From: an uncultured Chloroflexia bacterium
GTDB taxonomy: Bacteria > Chloroflexota > Limnocylindria > Limnocylindrales > CSP1-4
Length of the DNA stretch: 64,000 nucleotides
Direction of reading: 5' to 3'
Assembly (NCBI GenBank): GCA_963762445.1
Contig: CAVXLA010000004.1
Location: 358,794 to 422,793 of the forward strand
The notes beneath the pieces were generated by a model. That model did not search any database. It was not told the origin of the DNA and worked only from the letters and a program-made list of their open reading frames with translations. A program made the position numbers and the translations under genes. Shown here piece after piece: positions 1 to 5,582 of this stretch (the first letter of the stretch is position 1; each line of letters begins with the position of its first letter).

Positions 1-35
1 GCGGCTGCCGGCCCCGGCGGGCCATGATCCGGTCA

Positions 36-335
36 GCCCGAAGGGGCCGTGATGAACGGACCGCGGTGCCGCCGCAAGGCGGCCGGGCTCCTCGCAAGGG
101 GAGCCGGATCCTTCGCAAGGAGGATCGGCCCTTCCGCAAGGGAGGTGGCGCGGTCCGACGGTCGCACCGGTGCCGCAAGGTGCCGGGCCCGCTCGCAAGA
201 GCGGGAGGTGCTCCGCAAGGAGCGCCGCAGCCGCCCGCAAGGGTGGCGAGTCCCCCGCAAGGGGGGCGAGGCGACCGGGTCGGCGGTCCTTTCGGGCGCT
301 TTGCTGCCCGTCACCTCCCGGTGACTGAGCGCGGC
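36..335 (+). repeat. Head-to-tail array of at least nine GNRA (GCAA) tetraloop hairpins, each ~20 nt with a 6-8 bp stem of differing sequence, followed by a GTCACC/GGTGAC hairpin at 310-325. Candidate structured non-coding RNA or leader; the window starts inside it.
   Basis: GCAA loops at 74, 94, 115, 136, 175, 195, 215, 237 and 257, about 20-21 nt apart, with one degenerate unit near 146-166. Every loop is flanked by mutually complementary arms: gccgcc/ggcggc, gctcctc/ggggagc, gatccttc/ggaggatc, ccttcc/gggagg, ccggtgcc/ggtgccgg, cccgctc/gagcggg, ggtgctcc/ggagcgcc, gccgccc/gggtggc, tccccc/gggggg. G-U wobbles occur only where the pairing tolerates them. Third-position GC of the overlapping ORF is far below that of flanking genes, so it is not coding. 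The complementary strand would give UUGC loops, so the GNRA loops form only in a + strand transcript. Confidence 0.7.
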
Positions 336-369
336 ACCCCTCCGACGCGGATGTAGACTCGACCGCGAC

Positions 370-1311
370 GTGCCACCCGGCGCGCCCGTTCCCGACGTCG
401 AGGAGCCCGTGACCGACGCGCCCCCGCCCGAGCCCGCCGCGCCCCGCCCGCCGGCAGCGACCACCGCGCCGGCGCCGGCGCCATCGGGGCCCGCGATCCG
501 CCTCGCCGGCCTGCGCTTCGCCTTCCCCGTCGACGGCCGGACGGTCCCGGTCCTCGGCGGGATCGACCTCGAGGTCGGGCGCCGGTCCGTCATCGCCCTG
601 GTCGGGCCGAACGGCTGCGGCAAGAGCACGCTCCTCCGCGTGATCGCGGGGCTGCTGCCGGCCGCCGCCGGCGCCGTCGAGGTCGAGGGGCGCCCCGTCA
701 GCGGCCCCGACGCCCGCGTCGGCCTCGTCTTCCAGGAGCCGCGTCTCCTCCCCTGGCGGTCGGCGATCGCCAACGTGGCCTTCCCGCTGGAGGTGGCCGG
801 CCACGAGCGGGCCGCCCGCGAGGGCCGGGCCCGCGACCTCCTCGGCCTCGTCGGCCTGCGCGACTGGGCCGGGGCCCGTCCGGGCGAGCTGTCCGGCGGA
901 ATGCGGCAGCGCCTCGCGATCGCCCGCGCGCTCGCGCTCGAGCCGTCCGTCCTGCTGCTCGACGAGCCCTTCAGCGCCCTCGACGCCCTCACCCGTGAGC
1001 GCTTCAACGTGGAGCTGCTCCGCCTCTGGGAGCGCATCGGCAGCACGATCGTGCTCGTGACCCACAGCATCCCGGAGGCCGTCTTCCTCGCCGACCGGGT
1101 CGTCGTGCTCTCGCCGCGACCCGCCGTGGTCGCCGCCGACGTCGCCGTGGACCTGCCGCGGCCTCGCCGCCTCGCCGACCTGGACGCCGCCGTGGTGTCG
1201 CGGACCGCGGCCGAGATCCGGGCCCAGCTCGGCGGGGCCACCGACGATGCGTTCGCGGTGGCGACGGGCGAGGTCGGGCGCCACCCCGAGACCGACGCGG
1301 TGATCGCGTGA
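370..1311 (+). CDS. ABC transporter ATP-binding protein, NitT/TauT (nitrate/sulfonate/taurine/HMP) family.
   Basis: Walker A GPNGCGKST, ABC signature LSGGMRQR, Walker B LLLDEPFSALD. High third-position GC. The Pro/Ala-rich N-terminus suggests the true start may be a downstream GTG (about 409). Confidence 0.85.
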   Translation: MPPGAPVPDVEEPVTDAPPPEPAAPRPPAATTAPAPAPSGPAIRLAGLRFAFPVDGRTVPVLGGIDLEVGRRSVIALVGPNGCGKSTLLRVIAGLLPAAAGAVEVEGRPVSGPDARVGLVFQEPRLLPWRSAIANVAFPLEVAGHERAAREGRARDLLGLVGLRDWAGARPGELSGGMRQRLAIARALALEPSVLLLDEPFSALDALTRERFNVELLRLWERIGSTIVLVTHSIPEAVFLADRVVVLSPRPAVVAADVAVDLPRPRRLADLDAAVVSRTAAEIRAQLGGATDDAFAVATGEVGRHPETDAVIA

Positions 1312-2063
1312 GCGGGTTCCGGGTGCGGATCCTCCCCCCGCTCATCGCGTTCGGCGGGTTCCTGGCCACCTGGCAGGCGATCGTCTGGATCGGCGACTAC
1401 CCGGCCTTCATCCTGCCCGGCCCGCTGCTCGTCGCCGAGCGCTTCCTCGCCGGCTGGGCCGAGGGGACGTTCTGGCCGCATCTCGTGACGACCGTGGCCG
1501 AGATCGCGGTCGGGTTCACCGCGGGGGCCGCAGCCGCACTGCCGACCGGGTACGTCCTCGCCCGGTCACGGCTGGCGGACCGGGTCATGTCGCCCTACCT
1601 CGTGGCGGCGCAGGCGGTGCCCATCCTCGCCCTGGCCCCGCTCATCGCCCTCTGGTTCGGGACCGGCCTCTTGGCCCGCTCGATCATCGTCGCCCTCGTC
1701 GTCTTCTTCCCGGTCGCGATCAGCGTCATGGTCGCGATCCGGGGCATCGACCGGCGCCTCCTCGAGATGGCCCGCAGCTACCGGGTGACGCGCCGGCAGC
1801 GGATCGTCCTCGTGGAGATCCCGGCCGCCCTGCCCGGGATCGTCGGCGGCCTCCGAATCGGGATCACCCTCGCCGTCGTGGGCGCGATCGTCTCCGAGTG
1901 GACGGGGGGCGAGCAGGGCCTCGGGGTCCTGATCAACCTGGCCCGGGGCAGCCTCTTCGACATCCCCCTCCTCTTCGCGACGCTGACCGTGATCGCGCTC
2001 CTCGGGATCGCGCTCTACGGATCCGTCCTGCTCGTGGAGCGCCACGTCGCCGCCCGCGCCTGA
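1308..2063 (+). CDS. ABC transporter permease (binding-protein-dependent inner-membrane component, NitT/TauT family).
   Basis: GTGA start/stop overlap with the ATPase. Multi-TM hydrophobic protein carrying the EAA-like loop region (MARSYRVTRRQRI...). Confidence 0.85.
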   Translation: MSGFRVRILPPLIAFGGFLATWQAIVWIGDYPAFILPGPLLVAERFLAGWAEGTFWPHLVTTVAEIAVGFTAGAAAALPTGYVLARSRLADRVMSPYLVAAQAVPILALAPLIALWFGTGLLARSIIVALVVFFPVAISVMVAIRGIDRRLLEMARSYRVTRRQRIVLVEIPAALPGIVGGLRIGITLAVVGAIVSEWTGGEQGLGVLINLARGSLFDIPLLFATLTVIALLGIALYGSVLLVERHVAARA

Positions 2064-2347
2064 CATGCCGTCCGGCGAGTCGCCTGCCCGCCGCCGGTGC
2101 TACGATCGCGGCGCCTTCGGGGCAGGGTGCAATCCCCGACCGGTGGTAGCGCCCCGGCATGGGGCGAGCCCACGAGCGATGGTCGCCGCGCGGCGGCCGC
2201 GCAGACCCGAACGCGACCGGAACCCCGGTCGCGCCAGCGGGGCCGACGGTCAGAGTCCGGATGGAAGAAGGCGACGGGCGCGTGCCGAGCCGGCGCGCTC
2301 CCGTGGCGTGTCGCCCCGGGGCCGGACCGCGAGCACGGGAGCGACAC

Positions 2348-3430
2348 GTGACCACCTCGACCGCCAGCCGTCCCATCAACCGGCGTCTCAGCGGCCGGCT
2401 GCCGCTCCTGCTCGGCGCCTTCGCCGCGATCGTCGCCGCGTGCAGCGGCGGGGCGACTGCGGAGCCCACGACGACCGCCGTGCCGACGGCGGCCTCCCCC
2501 ACCCCGGCCGCCCCGGTCAAGCTGACGATCGGCCTCGGCTACATCCCGAGCGTCCAGTTCGCCCAGTTCTACCTCGCCGACCAGGCCGGCTACTACCGCG
2601 ACGCCGGCCTCGAGGTCACCTTCGAGAACAAGATCGACCCCGAGCTGATCACGCTGGTCGGGCAGGGCGCGGTGGACGTCGGGATCGCCGACGGGACGAG
2701 CGTGATCCCCGCCGTGAGCCAGGGGATCCCCATCCGCTACGTCTTCACGGTCTACGCCCGGTTCCCGAGCATCGTCTTCGCCAAGGCATCCTCGGGGATC
2801 ACGACGGCGGCCGATCTCGCGGGCAAGAAGATCGGCATCCTTGGCAGGTTCGGGTCCTCGTGGATCCAGCTCCAGGCGCTCCTCGCGGGCGTGGGCCTCA
2901 CGCCGAACGACGTCGAGATCGTGCCCTTCCCGGACTACGGGCAGATGGCGGCGCTGCAGCAGGGCGCCGTCGACGCGGCCACGGGCTTCGTGAACAACGA
3001 GCCGGTGCAGCTGGAGCTGGCCGGGACCCCGACCGTGGTGCTGGCCCTGCCCGCCACCGCCGAGCTCCCCGGCAACGGCCTGATCGTCGGCCGGGCGGCG
3101 CTTGACGGCCCCAAGGCCAACGCGATCCGCGCCTTCATCGCCGCGACCCGCACGGCGATGGACGAGATCACGGCCGACCCGCAGAAGGGCCTCGACGCGG
3201 CGATCGCCCGGGTGCCCGAGCTGGGAACCGCCCGCGCGGCACAGCTCGCGGTGCTGGAGGCCACGATCGCCACGTGGCAGAACGACTACACGGCGGTCCA
3301 CGGGACGGGAGCGGTCGATCCCGCAGCGTGGGAGCGCTCGATCGCGTTCATGAGCGGCCTGCCTGACTCGCCCGTGGCGAAGCCGGTCGCCGTCGCCGAC
3401 TGCATCGACGCCGCCTTCGCCGCGCCGTAG
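2348..3430 (+). CDS. NMT1/THI5-like ABC substrate-binding lipoprotein (ThiY/SsuA-like).
   Basis: Signal peptide with lipobox (LLLGAFAAIVAAC-SGG). NMT1-family similarity (KLTIGLGYIPSVQFAQFYLADQAGYY...). GGGAG ribosome-binding site 6 nt before the GTG at 2348. The six-frame ORF begins earlier, at 2159. Confidence 0.8.
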   Translation: MTTSTASRPINRRLSGRLPLLLGAFAAIVAACSGGATAEPTTTAVPTAASPTPAAPVKLTIGLGYIPSVQFAQFYLADQAGYYRDAGLEVTFENKIDPELITLVGQGAVDVGIADGTSVIPAVSQGIPIRYVFTVYARFPSIVFAKASSGITTAADLAGKKIGILGRFGSSWIQLQALLAGVGLTPNDVEIVPFPDYGQMAALQQGAVDAATGFVNNEPVQLELAGTPTVVLALPATAELPGNGLIVGRAALDGPKANAIRAFIAATRTAMDEITADPQKGLDAAIARVPELGTARAAQLAVLEATIATWQNDYTAVHGTGAVDPAAWERSIAFMSGLPDSPVAKPVAVADCIDAAFAAP

Positions 3431-3494
3431 CGCCAGGCCCCGCTCGCCCCGCCGCGGCGCTGCCTGCGCCGGTGGGCACCGCCGGGAATCGGGA

Positions 3495-3535
3495 CGGCCG
3501 GCGCGGCCCGCCGCGAGGGCGGGGGGCGCCGGCCG
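3495..3535. terminator. Long GC hairpin between convergent genes; candidate bidirectional terminator.
   Basis: cggccggcgc...gcgccggccg is a perfect 10-bp inverted repeat with an inner cccgcc/ggcggg pairing. It sits between the binding-protein stop (3430) and the yceI stop (3547). Confidence 0.4.
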
Positions 3536-3546
3536 TCGAACGGGGG

Positions 3547-4110
3547 TCAGGCGGCCAGGGCCAGCGCCGGCTCGACGACCGCGACCGCGGCCACCTCGTC
3601 GGCCGCGACCTCGAGGTCGACCGCGATCTCGTCGGAAACGAGCCAGCCCCCGGCCTCGAGCCCGACGTTCCAGGTCAGGCCCCAGTCCGAGCGCCTGATC
3701 CGGGCCCGGGCCTCGAACCCGGCGTGGCGGCGGCCGTCCATCCCGGCGACGATGCCGAGCATGTCGGCGTCGAGGACGACCGGCCGCGTCACGCCGCGGA
3801 TCGTGAGCTCGCCACTGATCGCCCAGCGGTCGCCCTTCGGCGCAATCGAGGTGCTGGCGAAGGTGAGCGTCGGATGGCTCTGGGCGTCGAGGAAGTCGGC
3901 CGAGCGGAGGTGGGTGTCGCGCGCCTCCATGCCGGTCTCGATGGTCGCGGCGGGGATCGTCACCTCGACCCGGGAGCGCGCCGGGTCGGCCTCGTCGAAG
4001 GCGATCGTGCCGGTGACGCCCTTGAAGATGCCCCGCACCTTCGTGATCATCATGTGCTTGCTGGTGAAGCTCACGACCGTGTGGGCCGTGTCGAGCTGCC
4101 ATGTGCTCAT
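3547..4110 (-). CDS. YceI-family (polyisoprenoid-binding) protein.
   Basis: YceI-like sequence (MSTWQLDTAHTVVSFTSKHMMITKVRGIFKG...). Start chosen at the internal ATG; the ORF upstream of it is a low-complexity extension. Confidence 0.75.
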   Translation of the reverse strand: MSTWQLDTAHTVVSFTSKHMMITKVRGIFKGVTGTIAFDEADPARSRVEVTIPAATIETGMEARDTHLRSADFLDAQSHPTLTFASTSIAPKGDRWAISGELTIRGVTRPVVLDADMLGIVAGMDGRRHAGFEARARIRRSDWGLTWNVGLEAGGWLVSDEIAVDLEVAADEVAAVAVVEPALALAA

Positions 4111-4170
4111 CGGGTTCTCCTGCTCCTGTACCTGTGCTTGTCGTCCGGTGCTCCTGGCGCCGGCCGCATG

Positions 4171-4217
4171 TAGTTGACGGCGCAACTATATCCCATCATC
4201 GTTGCGTGTGCAACTAC
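4171..4217. promoter_or_regulatory. Two palindromes sharing GCAACTA in the divergent yceI/marR intergenic region; candidate MarR operator.
   Basis: TAGTTGacggcgCAACTA at 4171-4188 and GTTGCgtgtGCAAC at 4201-4214, between the divergent starts (4110 and 4276). Confidence 0.5.
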
Positions 4218-4275
4218 CTGGTCGCAGAAGCGCTATGATCCGTGGCGCCGGAGCCACCACCGGAACAGGAGACCC

Positions 4276-4824
4276 ATGACCGAGACCACCGCGCGTCCCC
4301 GCGGCAGCGCCGACGTCGCCGGGGCGCCCAGCCCCGACGACCCGCGCCTCCGCGCGTGGGTCGCCTTCCTGCAGGCCCACGCCGTCGTGACGCGCCGCCT
4401 CGAGGCGGAGCTCCACGCCGAGCGGGACCTGTCGCTCGCCGAGTACGACGCCCTCGTCCAGCTCGCGGTCGCCGCCGACCGGCGGCTGCGGATGAGCGAG
4501 CTCGCCGACCGGGTCGTCCTGTCGCGGAGCGGCGTCTCGCGCCTCGTCGACCGCCTCGAGGGCGACGGGCTCGTGGCCCGCCGCGCCTGCCCGACAGACG
4601 CCCGCGGGGCGTGGGCGGAGCTGACGCCGGCGGGCCTGGAACGGCTCCGCCTGGCCGCGCCGGTGCACCTCCGCGGCGTCGAGGCCCACTTCCTCGCCCC
4701 GATCGCCGCGGAAGATCGCGACGGCCTCGTCCGCGCCCTGGAGGCGGTCGTGCGCGGCCTGCAGGCTCCCGACGAGGCTGTCCTCCCCGGCTGCGACACC
4801 ATCGCCGGCGCGCTCGAGCCCTGA
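4276..4824 (+). CDS. MarR-family transcriptional regulator.
   Basis: Winged helix-turn-helix MarR similarity (LSLAEYDALVQLAVAADRRLRMSELADRVVLSRSGVSRLVDRLEGDGLV). Start at the ATG of MTETTARPRG. Confidence 0.8.
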   Translation: MTETTARPRGSADVAGAPSPDDPRLRAWVAFLQAHAVVTRRLEAELHAERDLSLAEYDALVQLAVAADRRLRMSELADRVVLSRSGVSRLVDRLEGDGLVARRACPTDARGAWAELTPAGLERLRLAAPVHLRGVEAHFLAPIAAEDRDGLVRALEAVVRGLQAPDEAVLPGCDTIAGALEP

Positions 4825-4829
4825 GCGGC

Positions 4830-5582
4830 GTGACCGGCGTCCTGCGGACCGGGACGAGCGGGTTCGCCTACCCGGCCTGGGCCCCCGCCTTCTACCCCGT
4901 CGGAGCCCGCGGCGACGCGCTCCTGCCCGCGTACGCGGCGCGCCTCGCCGCTGTGGAGCTGAGCGGAACGTACTACCGCCACGTCACCGCCGGGCAGGCT
5001 GCCGCCTGGGCAGCCCGCGTGCCGGCGACCTTCCGCTTCACGGTGAAGCTGCTGCGCACGGGCTCGCTGCGGGCGTACGCGACGGATGCCGCGGCCACCC
5101 TGCCCTGGCTGGTGGCGCCCCTCGCCGCGTTCGGGAGCACGCTCGGTGCCGCCCTCTTCCGGATCCAGGCCGGCCAGGCCCGCGACGACGGACGCCTCGA
5201 CCGGCTGCTGGCCGCCTGGCCCGCCGGTGTCCCCCTTGCCCTCGAGGCGCAGGACCCGTCCTGGCAGGTCGACGAGACGCACGAGCGGCTGCGCGCCGCC
5301 GGGGCCGTCCTGGTCGTGACCGAGACCGACGAGGCGCCCGATCCGCCCCTGACCGTGACGGGCCCCTTCCTGTACCTCCGCCTCCGCCGCGCGCGCTACG
5401 GGACCGCCGACCTCGACGCCTGGGCGGCGCGGCTGGAGCCGTTCCTTGCGGACGGCCGAGACGCGTTCGTCTTCTTCCGGCACGATGAGCGCGGCGAGAC
5501 ACCGGGCTACGCCGCCGCCCTCGCGGCTCGGCTGTTGCGGCACGCCCCGGCAAGCAGGGCGGGAGACGGAGGCGTCGCATGA
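4830..5582 (+). CDS. DUF72 (UPF0759/YecE-like) family protein.
   Basis: GTSGFAYPAW...VELSGTYYR motifs are typical of DUF72. GTG start just after the marR stop; ATGA overlap with the next gene. Confidence 0.7.
   Translation: MTGVLRTGTSGFAYPAWAPAFYPVGARGDALLPAYAARLAAVELSGTYYRHVTAGQAAAWAARVPATFRFTVKLLRTGSLRAYATDAAATLPWLVAPLAAFGSTLGAALFRIQAGQARDDGRLDRLLAAWPAGVPLALEAQDPSWQVDETHERLRAAGAVLVVTETDEAPDPPLTVTGPFLYLRLRRARYGTADLDAWAARLEPFLADGRDAFVFFRHDERGETPGYAAALAARLLRHAPASRAGDGGVA

Follow-up and report, generated by a model that had tools for sequence, protein, structure and literature searches.

The first few hundred nucleotides (nt) of a 64,000-nt stretch of DNA from an uncultured Chloroflexia bacterium (contig CAVXLA010000004.1; we call the whole stretch the window) hold an array of GCAA-tetraloop hairpins ahead of an importer operon. 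Judged by its sequence and that of its relatives, the array is a previously undescribed structured RNA whose architecture we could place in no known family. We are nearly certain that it is a structured RNA of the + strand, and the sequence features on either side make it probable that this RNA forms part of the operon leader. To the fuller reading, in which it is a lineage-restricted, cis-acting leader of an NMT1/THI5-type importer operon with a rosette of hairpins as its sensing or binding domain, we give an even chance.

An earlier note on this DNA, written from the letters alone, had reported at least nine hairpins with GCAA loops starting at 74, 94, 115, 136, 175, 195, 215, 237 and 257. 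All of these loop starts are exact, and the hairpins are indeed there, although their number is exactly nine rather than a minimum, spanning 68-267 (+). Each loop is closed by a C-G pair on a stem of 6-8 base pairs (bp), and 8 of the 65 pairs summed over the nine are G-U. The arms differ between units (mean identity 0.33 at arm positions 3-6 from the loop) yet are complementary inside each, as had been claimed. Repeat units of 16-20 nt are spaced every 20-22 nt, and neighbours, described as abutting without a spacer, have 0-3 nt between them. The motif CGCAAG occurs nine times at 73-261 (+) and 25 times on both strands across the rest of the 64 kb. All nine + strand GCAA hairpins in the window with a stem of at least 6 bp lie inside the array; the - strand has two 6-bp GCAA hairpins, both away from it, and no second GCAA hairpin cluster was found in the window. 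Dinucleotide-shuffled versions of the region contain 0.005 such hairpins, and shuffles of the arms only, with the nine loops kept in place, give a mean of 0.14 and a maximum of 2, which excludes a chance origin. Tandem Repeats Finder returned only a weak signal for the region (2.3 copies). A + strand transcript, favoured in the earlier note, is supported by fold z-scores against shuffles of -6.2 for the + strand and -1.9 for the - strand, together with an invariant G-U pair in the closing helix P1. The region was also correctly called non-coding: the open reading frame (ORF) at 24-356 has a third-position GC of 0.72, versus 0.97-0.98 for the ATP-binding cassette (ABC) genes. In three hairpins the loop and 3' arm resemble a strong Shine-Dalgarno sequence (GCAAGGAGG in H3, GCAAGGGAGG in H4 and GCAAGGAGC in H7), each hidden within its stem.

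Minimum-energy folds give a closed architecture in place of the flat head-to-tail array first described. P1 encloses two multi-helix junctions, or rosettes, of which the first is closed by P2 and the second by P3 (Table 1), and the junction linkers are tiny (0-3 nt), with few conserved unpaired bases. Two irregular units of the earlier note find their place in this frame: the 'looser' unit at 36-47 is really the 5' strand of the 14-bp P1, partnered by 284-297, and the 'degenerate' unit at 146-166 is really the 3' strand of P2 followed by the 5' strand of P3. Nor does the array continue upstream of the window, as had been supposed, for in homologous loci this place is taken by a promoter-like block, and the RNA starts at ~35.

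The earlier note could place the RNA in no known family, and our searches agree. Rfam 15 gave no matches at gathering thresholds for the window or for three relatives (L202, L231 and L241), and at E <= 10 positions 1-600 of the window drew only chance matches, namely CRISPR-DR9 (15.8 bits, threshold 45) and hya (15.2 bits, threshold 56.8). A literature search found no description of such an RNA, and no paper on non-coding RNAs of Limnocylindria.

Relatives came from two scans. A degenerate three-loop pattern run against one genome per GTDB species yielded, besides one partial copy, at least 23 loci at which 6-9 distinct GCAA hairpins were present. All come from metagenome-assembled genomes (MAGs) with a GC content of 72-75%, which bear the labels Chloroflexia, Chloroflexota or Candidatus Limnocylindrales; in NCBI taxonomy, Limnocylindrales belongs to the Chloroflexota class Limnocylindria. 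The other scan used a pattern built around the invariant P1 sequence and added ~53 further copies from metagenomes. Other matches were set aside: of the 119 rows listed for the genome scan, 96 held common DNA repeats of 10 or 20 nt whose units were identical, alphaproteobacterial dnaN coding sequence accounted for 26 of the 79 metagenome matches, and the loose three-loop pattern met only collagen-like GPQ repeats and true tandem repeats in viral contigs. We recovered at least 69 homologous full-length copies, 58 of them unique, which form two subfamilies (A and B) of identical topology. As far as sampled, all apparently come from Limnocylindria-type Chloroflexota. Every copy found occupies the same genomic context; the element occurs once in the window and presumably once per genome. 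The same importer genes follow the RNA at every locus with enough flank, and the array and its flanks are kept even in operons whose binding protein is only 64-67% identical. Copies are 271-280 nt long except for L241, a metagenomic copy (1693-2012, - strand) of 320 nt that carries two extra GCAA hairpins after H1 in the first rosette; because these closely resemble H2, hairpin units can evidently arise by duplication. In two further copies (L286 and L312), H3 resembles H2.

Across the copies, the predicted helices covary. Pairing was scored on the alignment and re-scored with partner positions shifted ('slid') as a control. In the 58 sequences of both subfamilies, 63 pairs are 99.4% paired (slid, 39-55%) and 14 show double-sided changes (slid, 1-5). 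Taken separately, the 26 sequences of subfamily A are 99.2% paired over 97 pairs (slid, 40-52%), with 6 double-sided pairs (slid, 1-3), and the 31 of subfamily B are 97.6% paired over 95 pairs (slid, 35-50%), with 16 (slid, 0-4). Double-sided changes occupy 199 cells of the 58-sequence alignment versus at most 19 after sliding, and none of 500 shuffles reaches any of these measures. The 14 pairs of P1 are 99.8-100% paired in the 58 sequences, their sole changes being C/U opposite G, and one G-U pair is invariant. P2 has a C-G/U-A swap at alignment columns 31/165 (26 versus 31 sequences) and more compensation inside subfamily B; P3 is 100% paired in both subfamilies, with compensatory changes from C-G to U-A. 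H1-H4 are 99-100% paired across the 58 sequences, H2 and H3 each having 3-4 pairs with double-sided changes, and in the second rosette compensatory changes occur in H5, H6, H7 and H9. Single-sided changes are mostly C/U opposite G or A/G opposite U, and ~100 G-U-mediated substitutions preserve pairing. As the invariant G-U pair and the G-U intermediates work only in + strand RNA, we take the element to be one. The covariation of stems in relatives, with arms that share little sequence, also upholds the earlier proposal of selection for structure as opposed to a minisatellite.

The loops, by comparison with the arms, hardly vary. Of 522 scored, 469 are GCAA, 11 GUAA, 10 GUCA, 7 GAAA and 3 GUGA, and 22 are artefacts of alternative minimum-energy folds. 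The C-G closing pair and the G that follows it on the 3' side scarcely vary, and opposite that G the 5' arm has either C or U. UUCG-type loops never occur in the hairpins. GUCA, the sole recurrent non-GNRA loop, replaces GCAA in H3 (the equivalent of window 115-118) in ten relatives.

Covariation extends to the start of the first gene. The earlier note had begun the ABC ATPase at 370; GTG 409, behind a conserved GAGGAG at 400-405, is the most likely start. When the segment from GTAGACTC to the start codon was folded in 49 unique relatives, most were predicted to form a long-range helix in which bases from CUC onwards pair with the Shine-Dalgarno region. The sequestering pairs are CUCGAC/GUCGAG in subfamily A, CUCGGC/GCCGAG in L171 and CUCCGGGA/UCCCGGAG in subfamily B, which also pairs the GUG start codon (GCUGU or GCGGU with AUCGU). 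In an anchored table of this helix, level 4 switches between GC (22) and CG (18), level 5 between AU (17) and GC (25), and level 6 between CG (19) and GC (16). It has 199 paired cells, more than the 190 reached at most in 2000 partner shuffles, and it covaries both between and within subfamilies. From the covariation of the bases that follow it with the Shine-Dalgarno region, we infer that the transcript includes (T)GTAGACTC, which serves as an anti-Shine-Dalgarno element. Its TGTAGACTC form is invariant across the family; as it is unique in the window, a role as a general promoter motif is unsupported.

Between these two structured parts, the distance from P1 to GTAGACTC is 26-73 nt by marker, the variable stretch within it taking up ~10-65 nt. 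A GTCACC-tccc-GGTGAC hairpin noted earlier at 310-325 is present, but it sits in this spacer, which is variable in length and sequence. In the variable spacer that separates the array from the anti-Shine-Dalgarno strand we could recognise no conserved element resembling a promoter, which makes a one-transcript model the simplest. Just behind P1, GCCCG (306-310) can pair with CGGGC (293-297) and so compete with outer P1; the changes seen here are wobble changes, none double-sided, and this alternative hairpin is not established.

Table 1. Features of the hairpin RNA, its flanks and the neighbouring genes, in window coordinates
Feature	Position	Strand	Details
Promoter-like block, 3' part	24-35	+	-10-like ATGAT 24-28, predicted start A35
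P1	36-49 (GCCCGAAGGGGCCG) with 284-297	+	14 bp
P1 extension	51-53 with 279-281	+	Minimum-energy fold
P2, closes rosette 1 (H1-H4)	57-64 with 150-157	+	Fold and covariation
H1	68-83	+	C(GCAA)G cap, inside P2
H2	86-105	+	C(GCAA)G cap, inside P2
H3	107-126	+	C(GCAA)G cap, inside P2
H4	130-145	+	C(GCAA)G cap, inside P2
P3, closes rosette 2 (H5-H9)	159-165 with 271-277	+	Fold and covariation
H5	167-186	+	C(GCAA)G cap, inside P3
H6	188-205	+	C(GCAA)G cap, inside P3
H7	207-226	+	C(GCAA)G cap, inside P3
H8	230-247	+	C(GCAA)G cap, inside P3
H9	250-267	+	C(GCAA)G cap, inside P3
Post-P1 segment CTTYRYTGCCCG	299-310	+	Conserved in nearly all copies
Variable spacer	311-349	+	Sequence unconserved between subgroups
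Anti-Shine-Dalgarno strand, GAUGUAGACUC then GAC	350-363	+	CUCGAC 358-363
Shine-Dalgarno region	397-411	+	GUCGAG 397-402 overlaps GAGGAG 400-405; GUG start 409-411
ABC ATPase, NitT/TauT type	409-1311	+	Pfam/NCBIfam, third-position GC
Permease	1308-2063	+	Pfam/NCBIfam, third-position GC
NMT1/THI5-like substrate-binding protein	2159-3430	+	PF09084, E = 4e-41; annotated homologue 360 amino acids
YceI	3547-4185	-	Third-position GC and Pfam
MarR	4174-4824	+	Third-position GC and Pfam

The window starts ~34 nt before the RNA, and features further upstream were read in relatives (~60 unique sequences). Three or four direct boxes, cGTGGAC or cGTGGATAA (GTGGAC/GTGGATAA), stand at approximately -108, -95, -84 and -53, followed by a -35-like TTGCG at about -38 and by (G)ATCAT at about -14 from the RNA marker. 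The distances of the boxes, TTGCG and (G)ATCAT/ATGAT to AGCCCGAAGG are fixed in ~60 loci; the intervening spacers vary in sequence and, as RNA hairpins, fold no better than shuffles. This geometry looks like a promoter with transcription-factor sites in DNA, from which transcription is predicted to start at the A of cAGCCCG, window position 35. A scan with promoter and terminator consensus patterns gave no promoter match in this GC-rich DNA and found no U-tract terminator. One metagenome contig (L285, 1-10) opens exactly at AGCCCGAAGG, the predicted +1, and extends into the ABC genes; this may be coincidence, because contigs that end within the array region (L173, L243, L268, L288, L289 and L316) suggest that the block poses difficulties for assembly or sequencing. 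The conserved CCCCTTGCG at the -35-like position (approximately -44 to -36) is the exact reverse complement of CGCAAGGGG, the loop and 3' arm of hairpins such as H2 and H9, and this match too may be a coincidence. The consensus of the DnaA box is TT(A/G)TCCACA, and the third upstream box (GTGGATAA or GTGGACAA) matches its reverse complement at eight of nine positions, for example in L202 (1031-1092, -).

The promoter-like block and the covarying sequestering helix are consistent with a leader, one of the options put forward in the earlier note, and the RNA most likely helps to control translation of the operon. In the mechanism that we favour, a promoter with four direct GTGGAC/GTGGATAA boxes beside it would start transcription around A35. 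The first ~265 nt fold as shown by covariation, P1 closing the two rosettes, P2 with four hairpins and P3 with five, and beyond the variable spacer the invariant GUAGACUC and the bases after it pair, with support from covariation, with the Shine-Dalgarno region of the first gene. Because the GUAGACUC helix would sequester this region, the default long transcript would be translationally closed. The rosette would be the sensor, presenting many identical GNRA loops to a partner that acts in trans and is most likely a protein, and occupancy of the rosette would decide whether the sequestering helix forms, as with TRAP or CsrA. The anti-Shine-Dalgarno strand might, for instance, pair with the GAGUC segment at H8/H9 once those hairpins open. 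GGUGGCGAGUCC at H8/H9 is the best alternative partner of this strand in at least 17 subfamily A sequences, and most subfamily B copies have GGAGUC or a wobble-compatible variant in H9; the coupling of the anti-Shine-Dalgarno strand to GGUGGCGAGUCC is only a lead.

By analogy with TRAP, CsrA or boxB, it is plausible that an RNA-binding protein recognises the identical GNRA loops, as the earlier note had also suggested, and we tentatively entertain, at somewhat less than even confidence, a protein-binding platform over other kinds of sensor. The Bacillus trp leader bound by TRAP is similar in being a 5' leader with 9-11 repeats, on which a multimeric protein redirects the folding that sequesters a Shine-Dalgarno sequence. 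Its sites are single-stranded (G/U)AG triplets 2-3 nt apart, however, whereas the units here are GNRA hairpins of 16-20 nt, and no TRAP-like gene was seen, though no search aimed at one was made.

A candidate partner is encoded next to the RNA. At every locus with enough flank, a protein of ~69 amino acids lies upstream on the same strand (for example, L202 1150-1358, -), its ORF ~145-270 nt upstream of the RNA in ~60 loci. The pattern RRPxxP...ARRRRRR...YCGTNGC...CPICG combines an arginine-rich stretch with a CxxxxC...CPxCG zinc ribbon, and AlphaFold2 predicts a helix over the former and the ribbon at the C terminus (mean pLDDT 67.5). The protein has no significant match among Pfam, NCBIfam, PDB sequences or PDB folds, and no similarity to N. 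One search returned 86 representatives of its family, which carries no annotation and is mostly from Limnocylindria, and another returned 763 clusters. What makes the protein attractive is that arginine-rich helices can read GNRA-fold loops, as does that of lambda N with boxB (cited in PMC9074901). The boxB-N pair of the lambda and P22 nut sites accordingly offers a parallel in which a leader hairpin with a GNRA fold is read by such a helix (PMC9074901), and the small arginine-rich protein beside the array adds to the likeness. The differences are that boxB is one pentaloop hairpin, combined with boxA and used for processive antitermination of phage operons, and that here there are nine tetraloops. 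The case for this protein as the rosette partner is weak, and its position beside the array may be plain synteny. In a bolder version, which we consider speculative and on the whole unlikely, the GNRA display would assemble a defined ribonucleoprotein or RNA-only particle whose occupancy gates importer translation, with, for example, up to nine of the small arginine-rich/zinc-ribbon proteins, or another tetraloop reader, bound. If true, this would be a cellular counterpart of phage boxB-N that works with the counting logic of TRAP and CsrA and has folded tetraloops as its unit.

Several points weigh against a cis-regulatory leader of this kind. We infer the start site, the co-transcription of the operon and the 3' end of the RNA from sequence features, and our sequence analyses identified no binding partner. 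The invariant GTAGACTC contains TAGACT, which agrees with the -10 pattern TANNNT, and copies with a short spacer have TTCATG 17 nt upstream of TAGACT; these promoter-like elements would allow for a separate operon promoter and a stand-alone RNA. In the window's own 5' untranslated region, which carries a deletion, the Shine-Dalgarno sequence pairs in the minimum-energy fold with CCCCUCC at ~335-341, not with CUCGAC. Much of the covariation rests on the split between the two subfamilies, and independent events are fewer than the cell counts because the sequences represent one clade and many double-sided changes separate those subfamilies. That all copies come from one clade also makes the conserved synteny weak evidence. 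Since GCAA loops with a C-G closure are simply very stable, conservation of the loops might reflect selection for stability together with an origin by duplication. Finally, the small-protein family is much wider than the RNA, and the four distant members looked up have neither array nor operon nearby.

Of the other explanations, a metabolite-sensing riboswitch would make the junction or rosette a ligand pocket and the GNRA hairpins mere scaffold; the ligand would stabilise P1 and, through the post-P1 segment, set the state of the sequestering helix. NMT1-type importers in other bacteria are often controlled by thiamine pyrophosphate (TPP) or flavin mononucleotide (FMN) riboswitches, and the RNA shares with those of the FMN (RFN) and TPP classes a P1-closed multi-hairpin junction directly 5' of importer genes and a platform that sequesters the Shine-Dalgarno sequence. 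Conservation of P1, J1/2 and J3/1 in sequence would also fit, as would the ability of the post-P1 hairpin to compete with outer P1. Unlike those classes, the RNA matches neither RF00050 nor RF00059, nor, beyond the chance matches, any other Rfam model even at E = 10, and it has no conserved junction core: the linkers are only 0-3 nt long, with few conserved unpaired bases, and conservation is concentrated in nine identical loops, which is not how known aptamers are conserved. The spacer between aptamer and platform varies over ~10-65 nt with no conserved overlap, and the number of hairpins can change, as in L241. We think a riboswitch unlikely.

We judge it just as improbable that the array acts in trans as a stable small RNA, either free-standing or processed, perhaps in the role of a CsrB-like sponge, with its own promoter and an end or cut at P1, and with the operon promoter at TAGACT. 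Variable stems under identical loops are the pattern of CsrB and RsmZ, which likewise present many short, differing and covarying hairpins with one repeated loop motif as a multivalent display. The joining of the 5' and 3' ends by an invariant 14-bp helix is also seen in many stable RNAs, GC-rich hairpins follow P1 in the spacer, and TAGACT resembles a -10 box. The motif of the Csr RNAs is, however, the GGA bound by CsrA or RsmE, where here it is YC-GCAA-GG, and a GGA follows the loop in only two of the nine window hairpins (H3 and H7). Csr RNAs are, moreover, free-standing, with neither a terminal closing helix nor a leader that sequesters a Shine-Dalgarno sequence, and the array is presumably single-copy in each genome, is always joined to the same operon and lacks a U-tract terminator. 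The bases after TAGACT must be transcribed because they covary with the Shine-Dalgarno region, and a start 6-8 nt downstream of TAGACT would exclude them.

A passive role, in which stable 5' hairpins shield the messenger RNA from RNases or keep Rho off the leader, seems to us decidedly unlikely. Few known hairpins are as stable as those of the C(GNRA)G type, the untranslated leader is long (~375 nt) and GC-rich, and the identity of the loops could stem from duplication of the kind seen in L241. Such a role needs no invariant P1, no fixed number and order of hairpins and no two-rosette topology kept across 58 unique copies, however, and it leaves the conserved 3' G after the closing pair unexplained; UUCG-type loops would be equally stable yet are never used.

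Very unlikely, in our view, is a purely RNA-based architecture in which the nine GNRA loops dock into helical receptors, in the same molecule or in another copy, to give a compact or multimeric particle, of the sort recently found for other ornate bacterial RNAs. The stems are short, similar in length and radiate from junctions, and their many tandem C-G pairs might act as receptors for the nine loops. On reading the sequence we saw no receptor motif of the 11-nt type, though no dedicated search was made, and covariation between loops and receptors is not detectable because the loops hardly vary. OLE, GOLLD, ROOL and raiA are similarly ornate, conserved and lineage-restricted, but the RNA has no similarity to them (the Rfam searches were negative), and it is far smaller and joined to an mRNA leader.

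The idea that the array works as DNA, be it as iterons (the option that the earlier note had listed as its least likely), as a minisatellite or within a replication origin with DnaA-box-like repeats, is the only one of these alternatives that is clearly excluded: unit spacing is ~20-21 bp and the upstream GTGGATAA/GTGGACAA boxes resemble DnaA boxes at eight of nine positions, but the units share only their loop (arm identity 0.33), the invariant G-U pair and the ~100 G-U-mediated substitutions keep a pairing that has no meaning in duplex DNA, true 20-nt DNA repeats found with the same pattern all have identical units, no AT-rich unwinding element was seen in the upstream sequences read, and GC skew across the window is slightly negative. 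Repetitive extragenic palindromic (REP) sequences and the bacterial interspersed mosaic elements (BIMEs) are also GC-rich hairpins clustered between genes, but REPs are dispersed and share sequence, whereas this RNA has one fixed context, covarying stems and long-range closing helices. Arrays of clustered regularly interspaced short palindromic repeats (CRISPR) differ in combining identical repeats of 24-48 nt with unique spacers of similar length; here units that differ in sequence abut within 0-3 nt.

The RNA opens several directions. Proteins that read GNRA tetraloops, and RNAs that present many such loops, are almost unheard of in cellular gene control, and nine loops in a fixed two-rosette frame are a ready, testable case of multivalent tetraloop display. 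A defined output, in the form of a predicted Shine-Dalgarno-sequestering helix before an NMT1/THI5-type importer, makes the question of the input approachable. The finding also adds a well-supported structured RNA to Limnocylindria, an abundant lineage of soil and fresh water of which hardly any members have been cultured. Its compact design as a rosette of hairpins may also make the RNA useful to structural biologists and in RNA nanotechnology.

The genes of the operon have a third-position GC of 0.93-0.98. Among solved structures, THI5/THI13, the FAMP-binding ThiY and TauA come nearest to the binding protein, though each is a distant relative. Long + strand ORFs at 2065-3105, 3472-4173 and 4242-5582 are wholly or partly frame artefacts of DNA with 75% GC, a DUF72 gene occupying the 3' part of the last, and synteny in tblastn searches that used wrong-frame ORFs as queries reflects DNA conservation only. 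Further upstream, 150-250 nt before the small-protein gene, loci with and without the array share a conserved CGCAGGTYYGAGCRC and, after 10-20 nt, CGCTCCCGCG (L319-L322; L202 ~1440-1530, -), a stretch that could be another regulatory element. Outside the Limnocylindria, tandem DNA repeats of ~20 nt that bear CGCAAG are dispersed over many loci of Gracilibacillus oryzae (L157, L158, L165, L172, L193, L206, L211 and L221), and similar, unrelated repeats occur in a Poribacteria MAG (L129, L133, L138, L164 and L197); as their units are identical in sequence, these are minisatellite-like repeats and not hairpin arrays.

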